Notes: generated from the sequence alone by a model not told the origin. Shown: positions 1 through 32,751, numbered from the stretch's first letter. The stretch is DNA of 64,000 nt from an uncultured Candidatus Saccharibacteria bacterium (GCA_964543265.1 CAZIWN010000001.1:38470-102469), one strand, 5' to 3'. Numbers and translations are program-made.

Positions 1-792
1 ACCTAAGACATATTTTATAAAGCCCATAATTGCAATAATTGCCAATGATCCGATTATTAAAGGAATTGTTAATTTATCAAATATAGCTGTTATTATCCAA
101 ATTCCCACAGCTATAAGAGCAATACCTATTCCAAGCCTCATAAATCCTCTATGCTCTTGCCTCCAGCTTTCAAACATTTTTATAGATGATCCATAATAAA
201 CCATCGCTATAATAACTATTAGTGGCAAAACGAAAACTATATTGTAAAAAAGCAATAAAGGTAATCCGGTTATAAAATTTACACCTCCTTGGCTCATTAT
301 CGCTAAAATCGCCAAATAAGGTGCGCCAGTACACGGTAGCTCAACTAAAGTTATCAGTCCTCCAAAGAGAAACGCGGAAGTCATAGAAACTGCACTAGAT
401 GACATTCTTCTTTCTACCAGCGATATAAGTCCTTTTGGTATTGCTAGTGAATATCCCCATCCATACCAATAAAAATCTTTTACTTCCAAAAAAGCCGCTA
501 TCATAACGAATATTCCGATCACTAAATAAAGCGACTTACTTATTATTTCAATTTCTCTAACAGCATTAAAAAGAGATAGTAGCGTTAGTCCGCCAATAAT
601 ATAGGTTATATAAACTCCGGATACGTAAGCTATTCCATTAAGAAGTAGTTTTTTCTTACTTCCCATTTTTAAAAGAACAGTACACATCACGAGCAATACT
701 CCAATCACACATGGATTAATAGAATCAACCAATGCATATCCAACTATTACCGGCAACGACAATCCAGGTGCTGTTATAGATAAACTCTGCAT
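1..792 (-). CDS. ccdA: Cytochrome c-type biogenesis / thiol-disulfide transporter CcdA (DsbD family), N-terminal part; C-terminus lies beyond the window start
   Basis: Reverse translation gives MQSLSITAPGLSLPVIVGYALVDSINPCVIGVLL... with the two hallmark TM cysteines (INPCV and ELPCTGAPY). Multi-pass hydrophobic protein. ATG at 790-792 on the minus strand. Confidence 0.75.
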   Translation of the reverse strand, partial: MQSLSITAPGLSLPVIVGYALVDSINPCVIGVLLVMCTVLLKMGSKKKLLLNGIAYVSGVYITYIIGGLTLLSLFNAVREIEIISKSLYLVIGIFVMIAAFLEVKDFYWYGWGYSLAIPKGLISLVERRMSSSAVSMTSAFLFGGLITLVELPCTGAPYLAILAIMSQGGVNFITGLPLLLFYNIVFVLPLIVIIAMVYYGSSIKMFESWRQEHRGFMRLGIGIALIAVGIWIITAIFDKLTIPLIIGSLAIIAIMGFIKYVLG

Positions 793-854
793 AATACTAC
801 AAATTATAAATTGTTTTTAATATCGCGCCTAATTACTCCCTGTTAACAAGGCAT

Positions 855-1913
855 TTATCCTCTGCCCAAAACCGGAAAATTTACTGGTTTTTGTTTTAGT
901 TCTTTTTCAATCTCGAGCGAGCTCCTGTCGCTAAATTCAAAATAAATAACATCCTTGTCTTTCCATACATAGTTTGTGAAATCTGGTTTTTCTTTTCCAT
1001 TTAAGAATGCTTTTAGGGTTGCTGGTTTTCCATTGGGACATAAATTGCCATTCTTTTTGTCGGTTATATAATCTTCACTAAAAGGAACTTTAATTTCCTT
1101 GAAAAAAGCCTTAACCGTTAAATGTTCAGTATTTTTAACTTCTTTTTTTTCATTATCGTAACTTAACTGATCATGCCAATGAGCTAAATTTTTTTCTTCA
1201 TGAGTGTGGGGCATGTTAAGAGCTCCAGACTCTGTTGGTAATCTAAAATCTTCTCCACATATATTAATTGGCATATATGCGTGTATGTGAGCTGTCCAAA
1301 CACAATCTTCTCCAACTTTTGGACAGGTAATTATTCCGTTTGAAGGATTTTGTTTTTCTGTAAAAATTACAGAATAAATAAGTCCGCCCAATGCTAATAG
1401 AATTAAAAACCAAATTATTCCTAATTTATATCTCTTTTTAACTATTCCAAAAATCAAAACCAAAACAGCTAAAACAGAACATATATAAAAAGCTAAATTC
1501 TCAGAATTTAAATCTTTTGCCGGGGCATCTACCTTTATAGGGAAATCAAATTGGCTATTAGATATATTAAAGTGTATTTTGTAATCTCCTGAATCTGGAA
1601 AAGAAAACTCAAACATATATTCTTCGCCTTTTTGTTTTGCCACAATATCCTTAGCTACTATTCCAGAATTTATTTTTTCTATTTCTATAGAATTATTTAA
1701 ATTATTTAGAACCTTATCTGTTTTTATGTCTTTTACAGAAATCCATATAGGCGTTTTATATTCAGCAACAAACAAATCTGGCTGAACTATACTGGCTTTT
1801 ATGCTAGATAAATTATTATTTTCTGATTCAGTATGTGCGCTTGTCTTAGGGGATATATTTATTAATATCAAGACAAAAAAAGCTAAACCAAACGCCTTAA
1901 GAATATTTTTCAT
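855..1913 (-). CDS. Hypothetical membrane protein with a signal peptide, two central TM helices and a Cys/His-rich C-terminal domain
   Basis: 352-aa ORF. N-terminal signal-like segment, hydrophobic helices in the middle, C-terminal CPKVGEDCVWTAHIHAYMPINICGE...HTHEEKNLAHWHD. No recognisable family. Confidence 0.5.
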   Translation of the reverse strand: MKNILKAFGLAFFVLILINISPKTSAHTESENNNLSSIKASIVQPDLFVAEYKTPIWISVKDIKTDKVLNNLNNSIEIEKINSGIVAKDIVAKQKGEEYMFEFSFPDSGDYKIHFNISNSQFDFPIKVDAPAKDLNSENLAFYICSVLAVLVLIFGIVKKRYKLGIIWFLILLALGGLIYSVIFTEKQNPSNGIITCPKVGEDCVWTAHIHAYMPINICGEDFRLPTESGALNMPHTHEEKNLAHWHDQLSYDNEKKEVKNTEHLTVKAFFKEIKVPFSEDYITDKKNGNLCPNGKPATLKAFLNGKEKPDFTNYVWKDKDVIYFEFSDRSSLEIEKELKQKPVNFPVLGRG

Positions 1914-2029
1914 TTATTTTATTTTTTAGAAAAATCCAGCAGATAGGGAAGTTGCGACGATTATCACGAAAAGAATAATTAATATTATTTTTGCAAATTT
2001 TTTCATATGGTTTTTTTAAATTTTATAAT

Positions 2030-3058
2030 TTATATATTAGCAGTTTTTTTAGATAAATCTATATAATTTTTAATTAATGATATGAATATTGAGGCGATAA
2101 GTGGTCCATAAACTAATCCAATAACTCCGAATATCTTTATTCCTCCCAAAACAGATATTAATACAAAAAATGGATGAATTTTTATCTTATCTCCTATAAG
2201 TTTTGGTTTCAAAACATTATCAACAGAAGAAACTATTATTACATTATAAAGCAAGAAAACTATAGCAACCCATAGTTTGCCCTGTAAAAACATATAAGCA
2301 GCTGCTGGAACAAATATTAAATAAGGCCCCAACATTGGTATTAAGGCGAAGAATGCCATTACAAAACCCCATATTATAGGTGAACTTAAATTAAACATTA
2401 AAAATCCTAACCCACCTAAAAATCCCTGTATTCCAGCATTTATTAAAGTTCCATAAAGCACAGCTCTTCCAGATTCCTTAAATGTTTTATATAGATTCAT
2501 TTCCTCTGATGTTTCGAGTGGGCTAGAGTCTATCAAAAATTTAGCCAATCTTTTCCCGTCTTTAAGCATATAAAATATGGTCAGCAATAAAAGGAAAAAA
2601 TTAACCACTAAATTAGCAGCGTTAGATAAAAATGTGGCGATATTGCTAGTTATAAATTCTCCAACATTTCTAACAGTGGGGGCGATCTGTGAAGAAAATA
2701 GATCTTCCGTTCCGATATTTAGCTTTCTTGCTACGTATTGAATCGCTTTATCGTTTTCATAAAATTCAGCTGTTTTTATTTTTTCCAGAAATCCTTGTGT
2801 TTCTTGAAATAATAGAGAGAGTATTGTTATGAAAGGCAAGATAATAATTAAAGCAACAAGAACAGTAGAGATAAGAGATGGTATATTCGATCCATCTTTA
2901 AATTTCTTTGAAATAAAATTATTTAATGGCGTAAAAATACCAGCCAGTAATGCTCCTATTACTAACGGCGCCAAAAACTGTATAAAAACAGTGGCAAATA
3001 AAAGAGTGAATATTATAAGCAAAACAACCAAAAATCTATGCGAATGTTTATGAACCAT
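2030..3058 (-). CDS. AI-2E family transporter (UPF0118/PerM-like permease)
   Basis: 342-aa polytopic membrane protein. The N-terminal MVHKHSHRFLVVLLIIF...GALLAGIFTPLNNFISKKF and overall topology are typical of the AI-2E family. Confidence 0.7.
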   Translation of the reverse strand: MVHKHSHRFLVVLLIIFTLLFATVFIQFLAPLVIGALLAGIFTPLNNFISKKFKDGSNIPSLISTVLVALIIILPFITILSLLFQETQGFLEKIKTAEFYENDKAIQYVARKLNIGTEDLFSSQIAPTVRNVGEFITSNIATFLSNAANLVVNFFLLLLTIFYMLKDGKRLAKFLIDSSPLETSEEMNLYKTFKESGRAVLYGTLINAGIQGFLGGLGFLMFNLSSPIIWGFVMAFFALIPMLGPYLIFVPAAAYMFLQGKLWVAIVFLLYNVIIVSSVDNVLKPKLIGDKIKIHPFFVLISVLGGIKIFGVIGLVYGPLIASIFISLIKNYIDLSKKTANI

Positions 3059-3125
3059 ATTAAATATAATTGTATTATAACCCAGCTAAAATTAAAATCC
3101 GCCATAATTGTGGCGGATTTTAATT

Positions 3126-4271
3126 TTAAAAACTTCCAGAGCTTATCTTTTTTCTTATTTCTTTCAGATAATTCTCTATAAAATAAATATTATGCATAGT
3201 TAATAGTTTTCCAGCTAATTGTTCTTTAGCATGAAGCAGAAAATTAATTTGCCCGATTGAGTAATTTTTACAAGCAAAACACTTACAATTTTTTTCTATT
3301 GGTGAAAATTTATTTTTAAACTTTCCGGCATTTAAATTAAGATTTCCTTTTTTTGTTAGAGCTGTTCCATGTCTGGCAATTCGTGTTGGCATGGCGCAGT
3401 CAAAGACATCTATACCAGCCTTAATCATCAAAGGGATCGATTCCAAATCTCCAATACCTAGTAAATGATGCGGTCGCGATCGGTCGGAATAATCGGTAAC
3501 TTTAGAAATTGTTTTTATCATTTGACCTTTATCATCCGCAAACTCTCCACCGATAGCGATTCCAAAAACAGGTAATTCATTTATTTTTTTAACTGAATTC
3601 ACTCTTAAATCATCATATTTTCCTCCCTGAACTATGCCAAAAACCATTTGGTCTTTTATTTTATTTTTCTTTATATAAGACAAAAACTTTTCATACCAAG
3701 CATTAGTTAAATCTAAATTCTTTTTTACTTCTTCATAATTATCAGAAGGGGATCCACAAACATCTAGCATATATATAAAGTCTGCGCCCAGATCCATCTG
3801 TGTTTTTGCTGAAATTTCTGGGGTTAAAAATATTTCTCGGCCATTTCTAGGAGATCTAAATTTAACACCACTTTCAGATATTTTAACTAAATTCTTGCCA
3901 TTAGGAATTTTCCCGCCCTCTTTTTTATCTCCAACCTTAGATAATCCAAATTCCATTCCTTTTCCTAAAGAAAAAACCTGAAATCCTCCCGAGTCAGTAA
4001 ATATCGGTTTATTAAAATTAAAAAATTTATGCAATCCTCCAAGTTTTTTAATTTCCTGAACTCTGTCTAAATCTAAAAAATGAAAAGTATTAGTGATTTG
4101 GCACTGGGCTTCAGTAGTTAAGGTATCTTCATAATCCATTCCTCCTTTAATCACTCCTAATGTCGCCACGGGAATAAACGCAGGAGTAATAATCTCTCCG
4201 TGCGGAGTAGTGATTTTTCCAATCCTCGCCTTAGATTTTTTTGATTGTTTAGAAACTTCAAATTTAAACAT
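3126..4271 (-). CDS. tgt: Queuine tRNA-ribosyltransferase (tRNA-guanine transglycosylase)
   Basis: 381 aa. N-terminal FEV...ARIGKITTPHGEIITPAFIPVAT, a TIM-barrel core, and a C-terminal CxCxxC zinc motif (CKCFACKNY) with HNIYF. Confidence 0.88.
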   Translation of the reverse strand: MFKFEVSKQSKKSKARIGKITTPHGEIITPAFIPVATLGVIKGGMDYEDTLTTEAQCQITNTFHFLDLDRVQEIKKLGGLHKFFNFNKPIFTDSGGFQVFSLGKGMEFGLSKVGDKKEGGKIPNGKNLVKISESGVKFRSPRNGREIFLTPEISAKTQMDLGADFIYMLDVCGSPSDNYEEVKKNLDLTNAWYEKFLSYIKKNKIKDQMVFGIVQGGKYDDLRVNSVKKINELPVFGIAIGGEFADDKGQMIKTISKVTDYSDRSRPHHLLGIGDLESIPLMIKAGIDVFDCAMPTRIARHGTALTKKGNLNLNAGKFKNKFSPIEKNCKCFACKNYSIGQINFLLHAKEQLAGKLLTMHNIYFIENYLKEIRKKISSGSF

Positions 4272-4895
4272 TTAAATTTTTGCAATATATTTCCTTAAAG
4301 GACACTCTAAATGTTTGCATCTTGCGGTGCAATATTTTCTGCCATAATCTATTAATCGATAGGGGAATTGCGACCATTCTTTTTTTGGTAAAATTTTCAT
4401 TAAATCCTTTTCGATAATTTCAGGATTTTTAGACTTTGTTAACCCGAAGAGATTAGATAGGCGAATCACGTGCGTATCAACCGGAATTCCGGTAATAATT
4501 CCATAAGCATTCCACAAAATAATATTGGCAGATTTTCTGCCAATTCCATTCAATTCCAGCATTTCTTCCATAGTCTTTGGCATTTCGCCATTATGCTTAG
4601 CAACCAAAATTTTTGCAGATTCTAAAATATTTTTTGCCTTAGCTCGAAATAGCCCGATAGATTTTATATCTTTTTGAAATTCTAATAAATCAGCTTTCGC
4701 ATAAGTTTCAACGGTCGGATATTTTTTAAATAAAGCCGGAGTTACTTGATTCACTTTTTTATCCGTGCATTGGGCAGATAAAATAACCGCCACCATCAGT
4801 TCCCAATTATTTCCATAATCAAGCGCGATTTTAGACTTAGGAAAAAGCTTTTTAAGCCCTCCATTTATTTTTAGTATCTTTTTTTTCGAATCCAT
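4272..4895 (-). CDS. nth: Endonuclease III (DNA glycosylase/AP lyase, HhH-GPD, 4Fe-4S)
   Basis: 207 aa. HhH motif LELNGIGRKSANIIL, a catalytic region, and a C-terminal Cys cluster CTARCKHLECPL. Abuts tgt with no gap. Confidence 0.88.
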   Translation of the reverse strand: MDSKKKILKINGGLKKLFPKSKIALDYGNNWELMVAVILSAQCTDKKVNQVTPALFKKYPTVETYAKADLLEFQKDIKSIGLFRAKAKNILESAKILVAKHNGEMPKTMEEMLELNGIGRKSANIILWNAYGIITGIPVDTHVIRLSNLFGLTKSKNPEIIEKDLMKILPKKEWSQFPYRLIDYGRKYCTARCKHLECPLRKYIAKI

Positions 4896-4909
4896 TTATA
4901 TTATCAAAA

Positions 4910-6505
4910 CTAAACTCTAGAAATAACTCTAATCAATTTCTTAGCCTTAGAGTCATTTTCTTTCAAATATTCTGCAAAATCTGGAATCTTTTCAAATTTT
5001 CCATTCTCTATTCTATAGAAGTAATCAATCTTAACTTGTTCTATGAAATATCTGTCGTGTGAAATCAAAATCAAGCTTCCGGTATAATTTTTTAAAAATT
5101 CTTTTAAAGCAGTCACAGCTTCTGCGTCCATATGATTTGTCGGTTCGTCTAAAACTAAAACATTGGCTTTTTTAGCTGCAAAATAAATCAAAATCAATCT
5201 GGCTCTCTCTCCGGGGCTCATAGTTGAAATTTTGTTTTTTGCTTGTTCTTCTGGGAAATCAAATTTAGTTAGTAAATTATAAGCATTACTTTCTCCAATT
5301 CCAGCCATTTGAGATAAAAACTGGATAGGTGATTTTTCCGGTGGTAAGATTTCGTGCTCTTGGCTCATATTAACCAATTTCACCGATCCTCCCATATTTA
5401 TTTCTCCCGAAACAGGTTTTAAATCTCCAAGTAGGGTTTTTATTAAAGTTGATTTTCCTTCTCCGTTTCCACCGATAATACAAACTTTCTTTCCAAATTG
5501 GATATGCAAATCTATCGGCTGAGTTTTAAATGCCTTGCCACGTCCCACAACTAAATGCTTGGCTTCTATTTCGGTATTTCCTTCATTTTTAATTTCATAA
5601 GTTGGAATATTAAATAGATTTTTAATCACTGGTTTATCAAGCATTTCCATTCTCTTTAATCTATTTCCAATAACTTTCGCTGTCCTCAAAGATCTTCCGG
5701 CTTTATTGCGGTTATATCCCTGCAACATCTTGTCGTTATCAGATCTTTCCCATTTAGCTCCATCTTCAGCATCTTGCTTCTTTTCTTCAACAATGACATT
5801 TATTCTTTCAATCTCTCTTTGCTGCGCCTGATACAATTCCCATTTTCTTTTTTCGTCCCTTTCTTCATTTTCTAAGAAGTGGCTATATTTTCCATTAATA
5901 ACTTTAAAATGCCTCGTCTCTCTGTCTATCGAAAAAACTTTCTGTGTAACATTGTCTAAAAATCTCCTATCGTGAGAAACAATAACTCCAGAAATTTCAG
6001 AAGATTTTAAATAATCTTCCAGCCAAATTAAAGAGGGGAGATCTAGATTATTTGTCGGCTCGTCTAATAACAACAAATCTGCTCCTTTCATTAAAATTGA
6101 AATTAGAGCTATTTTTGCTTTTTGTCCCGAGCTTAACTCTTCCACTTTTCTATCCTCGATTCCTTCCTTAAAGCCAAATCCAGAAAGCATTATTTTGGCT
6201 TTATATTCTATTTTTTTTCTTTCTTCATCGTCTATGCCAGCGGTTTTAAAGATAAAGTCCATTACTTTTCCCTTGGCATCTAATTTTAATTCTTGAGGAA
6301 AATATCCAACTCTTATCTTTGGGTGTATTTCTAAAGTTCCAAAATCAGGCTTCTCAACTCCGGCAATTATCTTTAAAAGCGTTGATTTTCCAGTTCCATT
6401 TGGCGCAACCAAAGCCGCCTTCTGCCCTTTTTCAAGAGATAAGGATACATTATTTAAAACCTCTTTAAGGCCATAAGATTTGCTTACATTTCTAAGCTTC
6501 AACAT
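4910..6505 (-). CDS. ABC-F family ATPase (tandem ABC domains, EttA/Uup-like translation factor type)
   Basis: Two Walker A boxes (APNGTGKST, GGNGEGKST), two LSGG signatures, and a charged inter-domain linker. Start placed at MLKLRNVSKSYG (6505), which matches canonical ABC-F N-termini. The ORF track extends to 6565, but that extension overlaps an upstream hairpin. Confidence 0.85.
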   Translation of the reverse strand: MLKLRNVSKSYGLKEVLNNVSLSLEKGQKAALVAPNGTGKSTLLKIIAGVEKPDFGTLEIHPKIRVGYFPQELKLDAKGKVMDFIFKTAGIDDEERKKIEYKAKIMLSGFGFKEGIEDRKVEELSSGQKAKIALISILMKGADLLLLDEPTNNLDLPSLIWLEDYLKSSEISGVIVSHDRRFLDNVTQKVFSIDRETRHFKVINGKYSHFLENEERDEKRKWELYQAQQREIERINVIVEEKKQDAEDGAKWERSDNDKMLQGYNRNKAGRSLRTAKVIGNRLKRMEMLDKPVIKNLFNIPTYEIKNEGNTEIEAKHLVVGRGKAFKTQPIDLHIQFGKKVCIIGGNGEGKSTLIKTLLGDLKPVSGEINMGGSVKLVNMSQEHEILPPEKSPIQFLSQMAGIGESNAYNLLTKFDFPEEQAKNKISTMSPGERARLILIYFAAKKANVLVLDEPTNHMDAEAVTALKEFLKNYTGSLILISHDRYFIEQVKIDYFYRIENGKFEKIPDFAEYLKENDSKAKKLIRVISRV

Positions 6506-6555
6506 AGTTTCAAAATTTTGCCATAAAACAGCCAAAAAGTCTATATAAATTAATG

Positions 6556-6585
6556 TCCCCCGCAAAAAACATCATTCGCGGGGGA
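6556..6585. terminator. GC-rich hairpin (tcccccgc...gcggggga); likely terminator for the minus-strand micro-ORF at 6600-6707
   Basis: 8-bp perfect GC stem with a 14-nt loop. On the minus strand it lies 15 nt downstream of the micro-ORF stop and is followed by a T-containing tract. Confidence 0.4.
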
Positions 6586-6599
6586 TTATTTCATTCCCA

Positions 6600-6707
6600 T
6601 CATTCTCTCCCGAGCTCGGAAGATCGAATTTTCCTACCGGTGAATTTCAGAGTGCAACAAACATACTCGTATGCCCAGTCGCCTTCGACAAACCATTCGG
6701 TAAGCAT
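6600..6707 (-). CDS. Micro-ORF (35 aa) inside GC-rich islet 1
   Basis: Minus-strand ATG preceded by GGGAG 7 nt upstream. Translates MLTEWFVEGDWAYEYVCCTLKFTGRKIRSSELGRE. Followed by the hairpin at 6556-6585. Below the ORF-track cut-off. GC-rich. Confidence 0.3.
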   Translation of the reverse strand: MLTEWFVEGDWAYEYVCCTLKFTGRKIRSSELGRE

Positions 6708-6795
6708 TCTTGGCTCCCGGTTTTGGGTTGAGGGGTTCTAATCCATATAATAGAACTATATATAAATATTGTCAATAATTAATAGTCTTTTTTTT

Positions 6796-6830
6796 TGACA
6801 TCATTTTCTTCATCTATTAGCATATTTTAA
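6796..6830 (+). promoter_or_regulatory. Sigma70-like promoter (TTGACA -35) for the cupin gene
   Basis: ttgaca at 6796-6801, then 17 nt, then a -10-like tagcat. Followed by the RBS AGGGAGG at 6852-6858. Confidence 0.4.
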
Positions 6831-6865
6831 GTTCTTCAGATCAAAAAAACAGGGAGGATTTTCAC

Positions 6866-7282
6866 TTGCTAGCAATCAGGTCAGTCCAAGACGCCAAGGA
6901 AGCGTTTCCTCAATTGAGGTGGAAAGATCTCGTTTCGGGATCGGGAGGCAGGATGGCCTTCGCAATCGTCGGAGGCAACAAGGGGACGGGTGACATCACG
7001 ATTTTCTTGGCCATGGAAGACGGGGCAACTGCGCCCTTACATCGGCACAACAATCGTGAGGGTTGGCCTTTCAATGAATCCATTACTGTTTTAGTAGGTT
7101 CCTTGTACGACGTCGATCCGGGTCAACCAGATCTGGCTGTGGATTCCGGTAGATCAATCGACTTGATCGGCAACAGGCCTCACGCTCCGCGAGTCAACAG
7201 CGGAGGATTCGCTCTTGTCATCTATCGTCAGCCCGCTGGGATGGAGCTGATTGACGGGTCGTCACCCACAACTCCATCCTGA
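6866..7282 (+). CDS. Cupin-domain protein (RmlC-like cupin fold); GC-rich, probably horizontally acquired
   Basis: 138 aa, TTG start 7 nt after AGGGAGG. Cupin motif 1 PLHRHNNREG and a motif-2-like GNRPHAPRVN. GC ~55% against a ~31% background. Own terminator downstream. Confidence 0.6.
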   Translation: MLAIRSVQDAKEAFPQLRWKDLVSGSGGRMAFAIVGGNKGTGDITIFLAMEDGATAPLHRHNNREGWPFNESITVLVGSLYDVDPGQPDLAVDSGRSIDLIGNRPHAPRVNSGGFALVIYRQPAGMELIDGSSPTTPS

Positions 7283-7301
7283 CACGCCATGATCTTAAAA
7301 A

Positions 7302-7346
7302 GCCTCGACAGAAGAATCGTCTTCCGTTGAGGCTTTATTAATTTTT
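7302..7346 (+). terminator. Rho-independent terminator after the cupin gene
   Basis: gcctcgacagaaga...tcttccgttgaggc stem followed by tttattaatttttt. Confidence 0.6.
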
Positions 7347-7369
7347 TACTCTTTCTTTAATTTGTAATT

Positions 7370-8233
7370 TTATTTTTCTCCATTCAATAATGCCAATCCA
7401 CCCCAAAGCCCAACTTCATCCTTCAATTTAGCAATTTTTAAAACTGGGCATTCAGGAAAAACTTTCATTATTTCTTTAAAGTGTTTTTCTATTGATTCAA
7501 ATGGGATTGCTGGCGATCCGAAAATCATCGGTCCGCCCAAAATAATTATTTCTGGAGACCATAAAACGGCCGCGTTGTTCAATCCATAAGAAAGCCACAA
7601 AGCTAGCTCTTCCCAAATTCTTTGATTGTCAATTTCTTTCGGTGGTTTTTTAAATCTTTCCATCAAAGATTTTCCCGAACACATATTTTCCAAATAAGGA
7701 GGATTTTCACAATTTGGGCACAATGTTCTATCTGCGTCTATAATCATATGCCCCGGTTCAAATCCCTGAAAACTCGGAGCAATCTTTTTATTAGCAATTT
7801 TTGCTCCGCCAATTCCCGTTGAGATGGTTAAAAATCCAACTACGTCATATCCTCGCCCCTCACCGTAAACTGCTTCTCCTAAGGCTCCTAAAGCAGCATC
7901 ATTTTCCACCATCACAGAGCAGCTGAAAGCTTTTTCAAAATAACCCTTAATATCCTTAAAGTTCCAATCCGGCAAATTTGGAGCATTAGCAACTCCAGTT
8001 CTTTCATTGTTTATCGGTCCAGCAATTCCAATAGCTATTTTTTTTATTTTTTTTCCTCCAGAAAGCTTAACCGCCAAATCTTTAAATAAAACAACTGCAT
8101 CTATAAATTTTTGCGGAGTGGAAATAGATTCTGATTTATTTATCAATTTTCCGTTTTCGGAAAAGGCGATTCTTGTTTTTGTTCCTCCGATATCAAAAAG
8201 TAAATACATATCCTTCAAATGGTTTAAGTTCAA
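7370..8233 (-). CDS. ROK-family glucokinase / sugar kinase
   Basis: 287 aa. N-terminal LLFDIGGTKTRIA (ATP-binding), ROK zinc motif CPNCENPPYLENMCSGKS. Overlaps the 3' end of the upstream PGI-GH13 gene, which suggests an operon. Confidence 0.8.
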   Translation of the reverse strand: MNLNHLKDMYLLFDIGGTKTRIAFSENGKLINKSESISTPQKFIDAVVLFKDLAVKLSGGKKIKKIAIGIAGPINNERTGVANAPNLPDWNFKDIKGYFEKAFSCSVMVENDAALGALGEAVYGEGRGYDVVGFLTISTGIGGAKIANKKIAPSFQGFEPGHMIIDADRTLCPNCENPPYLENMCSGKSLMERFKKPPKEIDNQRIWEELALWLSYGLNNAAVLWSPEIIILGGPMIFGSPAIPFESIEKHFKEIMKVFPECPVLKIAKLKDEVGLWGGLALLNGEK

Positions 8234-11129
8234 AATTTTTTAATACGACTTCTTTTGGTTCTGTGTCTAGCGCGGTATTTAAAATTATTCTAGCTTTCTG
8301 AATCTGGGAATTATTTATTTTTTGGGGATTTTCAGAAAAATTAGCTACCACCAAAACTTTTTCTTTTTCAGATTCTCTAGTAAATGCGAAGACGTTTGAG
8401 TTTCCACTGTCGTAAGAAAAATATTTTCCATATTTCAGTGCTTGAGAATTTTTTCTGAAATAAGTTAGATTTTTATAGAGATTTAATATCGATTTTGGAT
8501 TTTTAGATTCCGTTTCCACATTAACATTTAAAAAATTTGGATGTATTGGTAACCATGGAGCTTCTTGTGAAAATCCGGCATTAGCACCAGCATTCCATTG
8601 CATAGGACTTCTTTCTGGGTCTCTAGCATATTTTGCGTCTTGAACTTCTTTACCCCAAGCGTCTTGAATGTTTCTTGGTGGAATCTTTACATCTTCCATT
8701 CCCAATTCCTCTCCATAATATATAAACGCCATTCCACGTAGGGTTAAAAGAATCATAGCCATCAATCTAGATTTCCTTTCTCCTATTTTTGTAGCGATTC
8801 TTGAAACGTCATGATTTCCAAGAACATAATTAGGAACCTGATCTTCTCCCACCGAGGCATTAAAATCATCTATAAATTTTTTATAAGCAGTAGCATTCCA
8901 TGGCAGATTCATTAAGTTAAAGTTTAAAGGAGCATGGAGCTTATTTCCGCAAGCCGCATAAAGTTTTTCCATTCCTTTTATATCAAGATAAGCTTCGCTT
9001 ACCAGAAACTGGTTTCCATGCTCTCCTAAAACTGAACAAAAAGAATTTGTTGTTTCTAATAGTTCTGGTTGTCCGGTAGAAAATATGTGAAGTAGGGAAT
9101 TATACGGATCATCTCTTCCGGGAACGTAGTTTGGATTTTGTGGATCGTCTCTGAATTGAGAGTCTTTTATTAAGTGATAAATAGCGTCAGTCCTAAAACC
9201 ATCAACTCCGTGATGTATCCAAAACTTTAAGACATTTTGCATCTCCTCTTTAACTTCTTTATTCCTCCAGTTTAAATCAGGTTGGCTCTCTAAAAAAGAA
9301 TGCAGATAATATTGTCCAGTTGTTTTACTAAATTTCCAAGCAGAACCACCAAAGACAGAAACCCAGTTATTTGGCGGTGAGCCGTCGCTTTTTGGATCTC
9401 TCCATATATACCAATCTCTTTTCGGATTATTTCGTGAAGATTTAGATTCCAGAAACCACGGATGTTCCGATGAGGTGTGATTTGGGACGAAGTCCATTAA
9501 AATTTTTATTCCTCTTTTATGCGCCTCTTCTGTTAGTCTGCTAAAGATTTCCAAATCTCCGAAAACAGGATCTATATCGTAATAATCAGATATATCATAT
9601 CCAAAATCTTTTTGAGGGGATTTATAAATTGGATTAAGCCATATCGCGTTTATTCCCAAAGACTCCTTAGTTCCGTCATTTAAATAATCTAGTTTTTCTA
9701 TAATACCTTCTAGGTCGCCAATGCCATTTCCGTCAGAATCTTTAAAGCTTCTTGGATATATTTGATAAACTATCGCATGATGAGACCAATTTTCTTTTGC
9801 TGGGCTTGCATATCCTGGCATTCCAACCAATAAACTTTTTGTTTTGATTTTATAATTTTCAATTTCCGGTTGATTAAACGGATTAACTTTCATTAATTTT
9901 GCCAAAAAATAAACCTCAAGCATTTTAAACTGCATCAACTCTCCCAAATCTTCTTCTTTTAAATCTTCAAGAATTATTTCTGAATAAGGCAATCCATTTT
10001 CATAAAAAGATCCTTTAACCCCTATTAATATAGAGTCCATTATTTGTCCGATAGTTTTTCTTGTTGATTCCGGATATATTTCAGGAAATTCTCTGTCTTT
10101 AGGGACATGGGAGGTTTGGTTATTTGAAATAGATGATATAAAAGAAAAATATTTATCTTTTGGTCCCGCAAGATATAGTTGGAGTACGGAATGTAGGTCA
10201 ACTGAGCCCAGCGTGACAGTTGGTGTGAAGTTTTGCTCAACTTTTTTTCCGTCTTCTGTTTTCGCTTTACCTAAAGACTCTGCAATAAGTTGCCTCATCC
10301 ATTTTCCTAAAGATTCAAGTTCTGTGTGAAAAATAAAATGATCGTAAATATTTTTTCCAGATAATAAATTTAAATAAGCCACCGAAGCGGATTCCATAGG
10401 GGAATCACTTTGGGAATTTATTTTAGAGTTAGCCCTTTTAGCTCCTAAAATTAATTTATCAATTTTTATTTTTGCTAAAATCAGTGGAAAAAATCCCACA
10501 TTAGAAAAAACAGAAAACCTGCCAGAAAGATTTTTAGGTATTTCTAGGGTAGAAATATTTTTTTCTTTAGATTTTTTCCACAAAATAGAATCTTTCTCAG
10601 TAGTAGAAACTATTCTCTCTTCAATATTTTTAAATCTTCTTTTTAAACAATGGATCGTGTATTCTGTATTAGCTATTGTCTCTAGGGTGTCTCCAGACTT
10701 GCTAATAATATTCAAAATCACCTCATCTGGGTTTTTAATCCTTGATTCTAAGAAAAAATCCAATTTTCTTAAATATTCTGGGTCGCAAGTGTCTAAAAAT
10801 ATCAGCTTAGGATATCTACTCGTTTCTAATATGTCGTAGTGTTTATGTAGAGCTTCATAGATTGCCTTTGTTCCTAAATTAGATCCGCCTATTCCTATCA
10901 CGAATACATATTTAAGATTTTTACTCCATTTTTCTTTGGCCAAATTTTTTGAATCGTTCAAGAAAGAGTCAAATTCAGGAATGCTCGCAAAAATTTCACC
11001 AGAATTATCTTTTTTCTTATCTATAAATTCAGAAATAAAAAACGCATCAGATTTTATTCTGGCCGTTGTTTCTGCTAATAATTTTTTATCCTTAATAGCC
11101 TTGTCGCTTATAAATCTCATCTCGCACAA
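8193..11129 (-). CDS. Bifunctional fusion: N-terminal glucose-6-phosphate isomerase (PGI) plus C-terminal GH13 alpha-glucosidase/oligo-1,6-glucosidase-like domain
   Basis: Single 978-aa ORF. PGI signatures (VIGIGGSNLG, SKSGDTLET, GSVDLHSVLQLYLAG). The junction ...VGMPGYASPAKENWSHHAIVYQIYPRSFKDSDGNGIGDLEGI leads into a GH13 catalytic region (FGYDISDYYDIDPVFG, GFRTDA, NHD). Confidence 0.8.
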   Translation of the reverse strand: MCEMRFISDKAIKDKKLLAETTARIKSDAFFISEFIDKKKDNSGEIFASIPEFDSFLNDSKNLAKEKWSKNLKYVFVIGIGGSNLGTKAIYEALHKHYDILETSRYPKLIFLDTCDPEYLRKLDFFLESRIKNPDEVILNIISKSGDTLETIANTEYTIHCLKRRFKNIEERIVSTTEKDSILWKKSKEKNISTLEIPKNLSGRFSVFSNVGFFPLILAKIKIDKLILGAKRANSKINSQSDSPMESASVAYLNLLSGKNIYDHFIFHTELESLGKWMRQLIAESLGKAKTEDGKKVEQNFTPTVTLGSVDLHSVLQLYLAGPKDKYFSFISSISNNQTSHVPKDREFPEIYPESTRKTIGQIMDSILIGVKGSFYENGLPYSEIILEDLKEEDLGELMQFKMLEVYFLAKLMKVNPFNQPEIENYKIKTKSLLVGMPGYASPAKENWSHHAIVYQIYPRSFKDSDGNGIGDLEGIIEKLDYLNDGTKESLGINAIWLNPIYKSPQKDFGYDISDYYDIDPVFGDLEIFSRLTEEAHKRGIKILMDFVPNHTSSEHPWFLESKSSRNNPKRDWYIWRDPKSDGSPPNNWVSVFGGSAWKFSKTTGQYYLHSFLESQPDLNWRNKEVKEEMQNVLKFWIHHGVDGFRTDAIYHLIKDSQFRDDPQNPNYVPGRDDPYNSLLHIFSTGQPELLETTNSFCSVLGEHGNQFLVSEAYLDIKGMEKLYAACGNKLHAPLNFNLMNLPWNATAYKKFIDDFNASVGEDQVPNYVLGNHDVSRIATKIGERKSRLMAMILLTLRGMAFIYYGEELGMEDVKIPPRNIQDAWGKEVQDAKYARDPERSPMQWNAGANAGFSQEAPWLPIHPNFLNVNVETESKNPKSILNLYKNLTYFRKNSQALKYGKYFSYDSGNSNVFAFTRESEKEKVLVVANFSENPQKINNSQIQKARIILNTALDTEPKEVVLKNFELKPFEGYVFTF

Positions 11130-32430: not shown

Positions 32431-32518
32431 TTTTTGAGCTATTTTGCCGGAAAATGGGTAATTGTCTGCTCCCAATTCGGGAAAAAGACAAGGAATTCAA
32501 CAAAGTAAGGAGGCTTAA

Positions 32519-32668
32519 GTGCGCGTCATCTACGATGCAGTTCTGGGGCTACTGGCTTTTGCCCGTGGCTCCTGGAACAAGTTGTTCGAGGAAGATGCCA
32601 TCACGAGGGTGAGGAGAAGGATCGAGCGAGCTCGAGATGAGGGCAGGATTCCAAGACGAGCAGCATGA
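32519..32668 (+). CDS. Arg-rich micro-protein (49 aa) in GC-rich islet 3
   Basis: GTG start 5 nt after AAGGAGG. Translates VRVIYDAVLGLLAFARGSWNKLFEEDAITRVRRRIERARDEGRIPRRAA. GC >55%. Strong terminator immediately downstream. Not in the ORF track because it is shorter than 60 aa. Confidence 0.4.
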   Translation: MRVIYDAVLGLLAFARGSWNKLFEEDAITRVRRRIERARDEGRIPRRAA

Positions 32669-32675
32669 ATTTCAA

Positions 32676-32725
32676 CAGGGCCTTTTATCGGAACGCAGTT
32701 TCCGGTCGAAAGGCCCTTTTTTTAT
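32676..32725 (+). terminator. Rho-independent terminator of the islet-3 micro-gene
   Basis: agggccttt...aaaggccct stem with an extended inner helix, followed by T7. Confidence 0.7.
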
Positions 32726-32751
32726 TCCAATTTAAGTTTTAAGATTATTCT

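Follow-up and report, generated by a model that had tools for sequence, protein, structure and literature searches.

Introduction

Cassette arrays that lack an integrase have been described as CALIN elements (IntegronFinder 2.0, PMC9024848), and a single cassette can also integrate away from att sites, at a genomic attG site, where it is retained in isolation and is referred to as SALIN (Loot et al., bioRxiv 10.1101/2022.09.11.507474). Genes for ribosomal protection-like ABC-F proteins, on the other hand, are classically under leader-peptide attenuation, as exemplified by msrD and its leader MsrDL, where ribosome stalling keeps a terminator ahead of the gene from acting (PMC10314930). In this study, we analysed a GC-rich islet that bears a partial resemblance to both. 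It occupies positions 6556-7346 of a 64,000-nucleotide stretch of DNA from an uncultured Candidatus (Ca.) Saccharibacteria bacterium (GCA_964543265.1, CAZIWN010000001.1:38470-102469), which we call the window and number from its first letter. The islet lies between a ROK gene and an ABC-F gene and contains a cupin gene on the plus strand and a 35-aa open reading frame (ORF), the micro-ORF, on the minus strand.

The first-pass annotation of this DNA had taken the whole islet for one recently acquired, self-contained expression cassette. Our results divide it. We consider it likely that the islet consists of an acquired cupin module and a native micro-ORF unit, which have come to lie side by side as two independent units.

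Results

In windows of 150 nt, the 64 kb have a mean GC content of 0.350 with a standard deviation (sd) of 0.058, and the segment 6555-7352 is both the longest and the highest GC islet (maximum 0.587), so that the GC-rich islet described earlier does rank as the strongest outlier from its AT-rich background. Its composition changes along its length. Block A (6556-6745) has a GC content of 0.48, the spacer between block A and the cupin ORF (6746-6850) one of 0.19, and the cupin ORF (6866-7282) one of 0.54, compared with 0.35 for the window. The codon composition is not uniform either: the window has 69 ORFs with a length of 100 aa or more, and the GC content at third codon positions (GC3) peaks in the cupin ORF, with a value of 0.572 (0.29 ± 0.06 for the others; z = +5.8). 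The islet appears to combine two separate transcription units arranged back to back, the cupin module and the micro-ORF unit, whose divergent promoters are 19 nt apart. Both junctions of the filled site recur with 100% identity in the Logan contig L004 (1202 nt), which comes from an independent assembly, and they are therefore not an artefact of a single assembler.

The closest relative of the window ABC-F protein (93% identity) is encoded in a metagenome-assembled genome (MAG) labelled Ca. Pacebacteria (contig L085, hereafter the sister), in which the gene order is the same as in the window (PGI/amylase, ROK, ABC-F, Nth, TGT) and the ROK protein is likewise 93% identical. The gap between ROK and ABC-F measures 865 nt in the window and 470 nt in the sister. 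What is missing from the sister is the segment from ~6776 to ~7360, about 585 nt that are replaced there by 8 nt, so that just 20 nt separate the ROK stop codon from the -35 TTGACA of the micro-ORF promoter. The alignment reveals no remnant of the cupin gene at the sister locus, and a second, independent Logan assembly (L086) is identical to L085 at the empty site. Block A, in contrast to the cupin module, is present in the sister with its promoter, Shine-Dalgarno (SD) site, micro-ORF, hairpin and a 31-nt element upstream of ABC-F, at about 80% nucleotide identity. The comparison of the ROK/ABC-F junction with a sister genome, which the annotation had proposed as a check on foreign origin, thus has a divided outcome, as the cupin module is absent from the sister and the micro-ORF unit is present and native at the sampled depth.

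The flanking genes of the window and the sister are 83-85% identical in nucleotide sequence, with a third-position identity of 0.59-0.65. As about 35-40% of the third positions differ, the two genomes belong to different species, and the word recent can refer only to the time since their split. The next relative (ABC-F 68% identical) has a different gene order and is unusable as an outgroup, and a search of genome contigs with the ABC-F protein returned only matches of ~30% identity dominated by the generic ABC motif. The sister has an additional AT-rich segment of ~175 nt with an imperfect inverted repeat (L085 5826-6000), located between the 31-nt element and the ABC-F ATG, that the window lacks. 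Together with the cupin module of the window, this segment marks the ROK/ABC-F intergenic region as an indel hotspot in both lineages.

The expression signals that the annotation had assigned to the cupin gene, namely a TTGACA promoter, an AGGGAGG ribosome-binding site, a TTG start and a strong terminator, were all located (Table 1). The TTG start is validated by the homologues, which align from residue 1, and the terminator-like hairpin has a folding energy of -22.5 kcal/mol (z = -5.5) and is followed by a U-rich tail. Elsewhere in the window, AGGGAGG occurs four times (3622, 34146, 45001 and 46692), and the three copies that were inspected (34146, 45001 and 46692) all lie within long ORFs. 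When any candidate start within the first 40 codons was allowed, a strong SD was found for 1 of the 51 ORFs that reach 150 aa (random positions gave 2.1 ± 1.3), and the 4-mer core of the motif was depleted before candidate starts, with 5/51 compared with 11 ± 2.6 at random positions. The annotation had described the native genes as essentially devoid of SD motifs, and we agree; the host appears not to be an SD-using organism. The cupin gene would presumably be expressed in this host.

The cupin protein belongs to a rare family. Ten relatives with 52-58% identity were found in 5.8 billion protein clusters, of which two have a named source, both being hypothetical proteins of Ca. Uhrbacteria MAGs, and in a profile search of 1.84 billion representatives only 2 matches passed E<1e-30, while 20 passed E<1e-10. 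No relatives were found in collections of viral contigs, phages, plasmids or JGI metagenomes. As to the donor lineage, which the annotation had proposed to look for, the relatives lie in higher-GC lineages, the named ones in Ca. Uhrbacteria, and none is closer than 58%. Residues H59, H61, E71 and H106 are invariant across all 10 aligned sequences. With the 10-sequence alignment as input, AlphaFold2 predicted a cupin β-barrel (predicted local distance difference test (pLDDT) 85, predicted template modelling score (pTM) 0.80). Foldseek returned 105 matches in the PDB at E<=1e-3, and the top ones were almost all cupins with template modelling (TM) scores of 0.5-0.65, the best neighbours being the single-domain cupins RemF, TM1010, TM1459, KdgF and DddK and the ChrR cupin domain. 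The sole match at the sequence level in the PDB is to the N-terminal cupin domain of the quercetin 2,3-dioxygenase YxaG, marginal at E = 0.02, with the metal ligands aligned. In Pfam, the window protein scores 15.2 bits against Cupin_7 and the best family member 23.6 bits against the cupin models, where the cutoff is 27; all matches to Cupin_7 and Cupin_2 are sub-threshold. On the basis of the predicted fold and the invariant residues, the product is a genuine but divergent single-domain cupin with a putative metal-binding site of the type His-x-His...Glu...His, and it probably acts as an enzyme on small molecules.

The homologous genes, too, tend to be GC islands. On four contigs (L002, L092, L095 and L096), the cupin gene has a GC3 of 0.83-0.86 within DNA of 0.36-0.49 GC; on L090, from a Ca. 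Uhrbacteria MAG, it matches its background (GC3 0.81, surrounding GC 0.62); and on L001 it has a GC3 of 0.31 where the surrounding GC is 0.34. The overall GC content of the GC-rich homologue genes is 0.64-0.66. All copies have an AAGGAGG-type SD and a hairpin after the ORF, and the modules of the close homologues share a TTGAC...TATAAA promoter in the same position as in the window. The architecture of a self-contained cassette is therefore a property of the cupin family. The homology between L002 and L093 is limited to 636 nt around the cupin gene, and the flanks are unrelated in both DNA and protein.

A wider context is provided by L097, an 11.2-kb extension of L002. Over positions 1-8300 it carries an array in which the cupin gene is one of about ten small, unrelated and mostly co-oriented genes, including those for EamA, SET, AAA_18, GrpB, a ParE toxin pair and YdjM. 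The genes are separated by imperfect palindromes of 60-110 nt, which start with an inverse core such as CCGATAAC (...GATAAC) and end in ...CATAT.CC.GGAAC|GTTRRRY. The sequence GGAACGTTA is present on L097 in 3 copies (0.06 expected), all of them intergenic and on one strand, and on L095 (2290-2940) a 28-nt direct repeat that ends in GGAACGTTA lies on both sides of the cupin gene. In L002, L092 and L096, the homology of the modules starts exactly at G|TTATCGG or G|TTAGCGG, and the inverse core at the 3' end of the homologue module (CCGATAAC) is complementary to the module start G|TTATCGG. No integrase was found among the gene calls on L097. By analogy, its organisation looks like an integron cassette array without an integrase (CALIN-type); the repeats of L097 and L095 are best termed attC-like rather than attC. 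The Ca. Uhrbacteria label covers the two named cupin contigs and does not extend to L097, whose PALP protein had no named matches, and integrons in the Ca. Uhrbacteria group are undocumented within the literature open to search. Taken at the level of sequence, these contexts indicate that the cupin module is mobile in other contigs.

Further elements were observed next to the homologues. The copies on L001 and L095 are situated 100-160 nt 3' of a tRNA or tRNA-like sequence, which on L001 (4750-4838) is an ARAGORN-confirmed tRNA-Ser(CGA) and on L095 (~2195-2270) was read by eye as a tRNA-Asn, unconfirmed by ARAGORN. On L092 (709-1566) and L093 (1253-2110), the 3' attC-like site of the module is the precise point of insertion of an insertion sequence (IS) of the IS1595 family; it has 25-35-nt terminal inverted repeats (GGTAATTAGTGGGAAACGTAACCAA) and a probable 8-bp AT-rich duplication.

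The window was searched for comparable traces of insertion. GGAACGTTA is not present in it, and a profile of 12 attC-like 3' halves gave no nhmmer match at E<=10. The only palindrome of the window module is a tight hairpin of 38 nt that contains GTTGAGG, which agrees with GTTRRRY in 6/7 positions. With an attC site defined as R''-L''-L'-R' over about 57-141 nt, 3' of an ORF, this hairpin is too short and too tightly paired, and its T-run is that of an ordinary terminator. The edges of the module, which the alignment with the sister (AT-rich here, 80% identity) places with a precision of about ±10 nt, show no core-like sequence at either end, and its flanks have no similarity to those of the other cupin modules. 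The best terminal inverted repeat in the window pairs 12/14 positions and is not significant; 2.7% of the shuffles were as good or better (p about 0.03), and its left arm lies in sequence common to the empty site, over the conserved host promoter. The alignment with the sister reveals no target-site duplication at the insertion edges.

The micro-ORF unit is complete in itself. The ORF, the GGGAG site and the GC-rich hairpin reported earlier are all present, and we add to them a promoter that matches the consensus in 11/12 positions (Table 1). The sister encodes the peptide MLTEWVVFGDWAYEYVCCTLRFTGNKILASSLGRSN, and over codons 1-24 the two genomes differ by 9 synonymous and 3 non-synonymous codons, a pattern that argues for purifying selection on the peptide and not on an RNA structure. 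The hairpin of the sister has a conserved stem and a variable loop. Gene callers missed the micro-ORF in every assembly examined; it has no match in Rfam, Pfam or NCBIfam, and no relatives were found in JGI metagenome contigs, by exact look-up or by tblastn against the fetched loci. Single-sequence AlphaFold2 predicted a three-stranded β sheet (pLDDT 81 in the best model, lower in the others), for which Foldseek found no significant structural neighbour. The GC3 of the micro-ORF is 0.50 in the window and 0.46 in the sister, which is above the background by only about 2.7 sd given its 35 codons; the hairpins and the richness of the peptide in Trp, Gly, Cys and Ala explain part of the GC excess of the unit. 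Since the sister keeps the micro-ORF with its promoter and hairpin at ~80% nucleotide identity and with coding substitutions, the claim that it belongs to the acquired cassette cannot be maintained. As far as the comparison goes, the minus-strand unit at 6556-6775 codes for a protein, is native and common to the sister species, and does not belong to the insertion, and coding selection is apparent on both the cupin ORF and the micro-ORF. The 31-nt element, found at 5797-5827 of L085 in non-coding DNA that is otherwise only about 80% identical, may be the promoter of the ABC-F gene (TAGACT-17-CAAAAT, 8/12, under the promoter-scan threshold) or a protein-binding site.

Table 1. Features of the ROK/ABC-F intergenic region, in window coordinates
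Feature	Position	Strand	Remark
31-nt element between hairpin and ABC-F ATG: TATAGACTTTTTGGC[T/G]GTTTTATGGCAAAAT	6515..6545	-	30/31 identical in sister
GC-rich 11-bp hairpin 3' of micro-ORF, 50 nt before ABC-F start; weak U-tract	6556..6585	-	
Micro-ORF, 35 aa + stop, ATG at 6707: MLTEWFVEGDWAYEYVCCTLKFTGRKIRSSELGRE	6600..6707	-	
SD-like GGGAG, 6 nt 5' of micro-ORF ATG	6714..6718	-	GGAGA in sister
Micro-ORF promoter, TTGACA-17-TATTAT	6747..6775	-	11/12; kept in sister
Cupin module, absent from sister genome	6776..7360	+	Alignment with L085; edges good to about ±10 nt
Cupin promoter, sigma-70-like, TTGACA-17-TAGCAT	6795..6823	+	10/12 matches
Shine-Dalgarno AGGGAGG, 8 nt 5' of TTG 6866	6851..6857	+	
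Cupin ORF, 138 aa, TTG start, stop included	6866..7282	+	Ten homologues align from residue 1
Intrinsic-terminator-like hairpin 7299-7336 + T-rich tail	7299..7349	+	Folding energy

Two other features of the window deserve mention. The second-strongest GC islet (32435-32743, with 150-nt GC values up to 0.567) is an intergenic stretch of ~320 nt, with a NUDIX-like ORF on one side and an ORF for a CobO/BtuR-like adenosyltransferase on the other. It contains a GC-rich ORF of 49 aa at 32519-32668 (plus strand), and Rfam gave no match to it at E<=0.1; a second foreign micro-gene and a leader RNA of an undescribed type are both conceivable. At 8193-11129 on the minus strand, an ORF of 978 aa encodes a phosphoglucose-isomerase (PGI) domain fused to an α-amylase-family domain, a fusion that is kept in the sister as a 975-aa protein with the Pfam domains PGI and Alpha-amylase.

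Discussion

The reading that we favour for this locus separates the history of its two units. The cupin module (~6776-7360) would be a horizontally acquired single-gene unit with its own sigma-70 promoter, strong SD, TTG-initiated ORF and terminator hairpin, and it would have entered the ROK/ABC-F intergenic region after the split from the closest sampled relative. Its source would be a pool of mobile genes among higher-GC relatives, in which Ca. Uhrbacteria are the only members with a name; the occurrence of the cupin family as portable GC-rich modules, including a cassette in an attC-like array, points to such a pool. The micro-ORF unit would be a native gene for a 35-aa small protein that has a promoter and a hairpin to itself and immediately precedes a ribosomal-protection-like ABC-F gene. 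We infer that the event was a gain rather than a loss and that the donor group is to be sought among the higher-GC relatives of the mobile gene pool. As far as the cupin gene is concerned, the idea of a foreign, self-contained expression cassette from a higher-GC lineage has thus stood up well, on account of its composition, its absence from the sister and its higher-GC homologues. The claim that the acquisition was recent holds in the sense that it would postdate the split from L085; it does not hold in a stricter sense, as the two species are well diverged and no close donor has come to light.

Several observations weigh against this account of the cupin module. No homologue is closer than 58% identity, and no donor has been pinpointed. 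There is a single syntenic relative, so that gain and loss cannot be polarised by an outgroup. The low GC3 of the L001 copy, in a genome of similarly low GC content, shows that the family is not exclusively a high-GC one. The non-coding flanks of the window module are unlike those of the other modules, and no attC-like site, terminal inverted repeat or target-site duplication is detectable in the module. Finally, the use of SD sites is not apparent in the host, where the SD may or may not help the expression of the cupin gene.

In the contrary history, the common ancestor already had the cupin gene at this locus, and a clean deletion removed it from the sister lineage; this view draws on the fact that the presence or absence of a segment in two genomes is symmetric and on the indel-prone nature of the region, where the sister has the separate ~175-nt segment missing from the window. 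However, the deviant GC3 of the cupin ORF and an SD within an SD-less genome both speak against a long stay in this genome, the other members of the family come from distant lineages and mobile contexts, and the sister retains no remnant of the gene; we regard the loss as improbable. That the whole of 6556-7346 came in as a single foreign cassette, with the micro-ORF and the cupin gene together, would account for the high GC content of both halves, for their SD-like sites in an SD-poor genome and for the short distance between the divergent promoters. Nevertheless, L085 and L086 have the micro-ORF unit without the cupin gene, and no relative of the micro-ORF is present at any of the cupin homologue loci, which makes a joint arrival very improbable indeed. 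The GC-rich islets of AT-rich genomes frequently turn out to be RNA genes, and the predicted fold of block A is somewhat more stable than those of its shuffled versions (z = -2.8). Yet the changes in the micro-ORF fall at third positions, and the cupin ORF has a 10-member alignment and a confidently predicted fold, so that an interpretation of the GC-rich blocks as structured non-coding RNA genes instead of protein-coding ones is scarcely credible. At the gathering score, Rfam 15 finds only 3 tRNAs in the window, a permissive Rfam scan of 6450-7450 gave a spurious best match at E = 0.42, and ARAGORN finds no tRNA or tmRNA in the islet. A structured RNA was excluded for either GC block by Rfam, ARAGORN and the coding substitution pattern.

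For the micro-ORF unit, the most serious competitor is a regulatory one. By analogy with msrD/MsrDL, the micro-ORF and its hairpin might form a ribosome-sensing attenuator leader of the ABC-F gene and not an independent gene. The layout on one strand, with a strong promoter, a 35-codon ORF, a hairpin, 50 nt and then the ABC-F ATG, is what such a leader would require, and the ABC-F protein passes the NCBIfam model NF000355, 'ribosomal protection-like ABC-F' (393 bits, cutoff 380). In addition, the stretch from the hairpin to the ABC-F start contains no promoter with 9/12 or more matches, and the poor U-tract of the hairpin makes read-through plausible. On the other hand, when a 27-nt ribosome footprint was imposed on the folding, codon by codon over 37 positions, the hairpin stayed closed in both genomes, and neither genome has a competitive antiterminator. 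The distance of 16-17 nt between the stop codon and the stem is too large for simple occlusion. A comparable leader is missing from the ABC-F orthologue with 68% identity, the 175-nt insert of the sister parts the hairpin from the ABC-F start, and selection acts on the N-terminal 24 residues of a peptide that is predicted to fold into a β sheet. We prefer an independent small-protein gene, while granting the leader a better chance than any of the alternatives above.

How the cupin module reached its present position is a separate question. It is safe to conclude from the sequence that the window cupin came from a mobile gene pool. We can imagine, as a rather speculative option, that the module is a decayed, isolated integron-type cassette (SALIN-like) derived from arrays that circulate among the ultra-small genomes of Patescibacteria/candidate phyla radiation (CPR) bacteria. 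If true, integron-style cassette traffic would extend into a CPR genome and to a site away from any integron, and a cassette with its own promoter and SD could be expressed wherever it landed, even in SD-less hosts. The ends of a miniature inverted-repeat transposable element (MITE) or mobile insertion cassette were also considered and were rejected, because each inverted repeat turned out to be an arm of an attC-like palindrome of a kind common to neighbouring cassettes on L097.

With the acquired cupin module and the native micro-ORF unit set apart, the locus provides a clean and well-bounded case of what appears to be a single-gene horizontal acquisition in a reduced, AT-rich and SD-less CPR genome, in which both the filled and the empty site are at hand and the transferred unit brings all its own expression signals. 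Two unannotated gene families are put on record, a rare cupin clade that serves as portable cargo and a 35-aa protein under purifying selection. The finding is tidy but unsurprising, and it leaves the current understanding of gene transfer unchanged. The most interesting lead is to be sought beyond the window, among the attC-like cassette arrays in which the cupin family occurs.

Among known systems, msrD/MsrDL resembles the micro-ORF unit in that a ribosomal-protection-like ABC-F gene is immediately preceded, on its own strand, by a short ORF and a GC-rich hairpin. In contrast to MsrDL, the window ORF has as many as 35 codons and a conserved N-terminus, the geometry for antitermination or occlusion is absent, and the next orthologue is leaderless. 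The cupin product shares with the metallo-cupins (Cupin_2 PF07883 and Cupin_7/ChrR-like PF12973, with TM1459, TM1010, RemF and the YxaG N-domain) a predicted β-barrel (TM 0.6-0.65, prob 1.0), a size of 125-138 aa and the His-x-His...Glu...His ligands, which align with the metal ligands of YxaG. It differs from the textbook cupin motif in the longer spacer between HxH and Glu, 9 residues in this family ('RExGWPFRE'), and from the Pfam cupin families in scores below the gathering threshold, so that no substrate or function can be transferred. Like mobile insertion cassettes and MITEs, the module is a ~0.6-kb transposase-less unit with one passenger gene, and its homologues have inverted repeats beside them and, in one case, an adjacent IS1595-family IS. 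Unlike MITEs, it has no target-site duplication, and the inverted repeats of the homologues are the arms of attC-like palindromes. In comparison with integron cassettes, the window has no attC-like site, no G|TT core is apparent at the junctions as placed to about ±10 nt, and the module possesses its own promoter. As in SALIN, the window copy stands alone, and no integrase turned up in the region studied, where no integrase-directed search was made. The closest parallel to integron cassettes is found in the homologues elsewhere, where the cupin gene is one unit of a same-strand array of small genes with attC-like palindromes.

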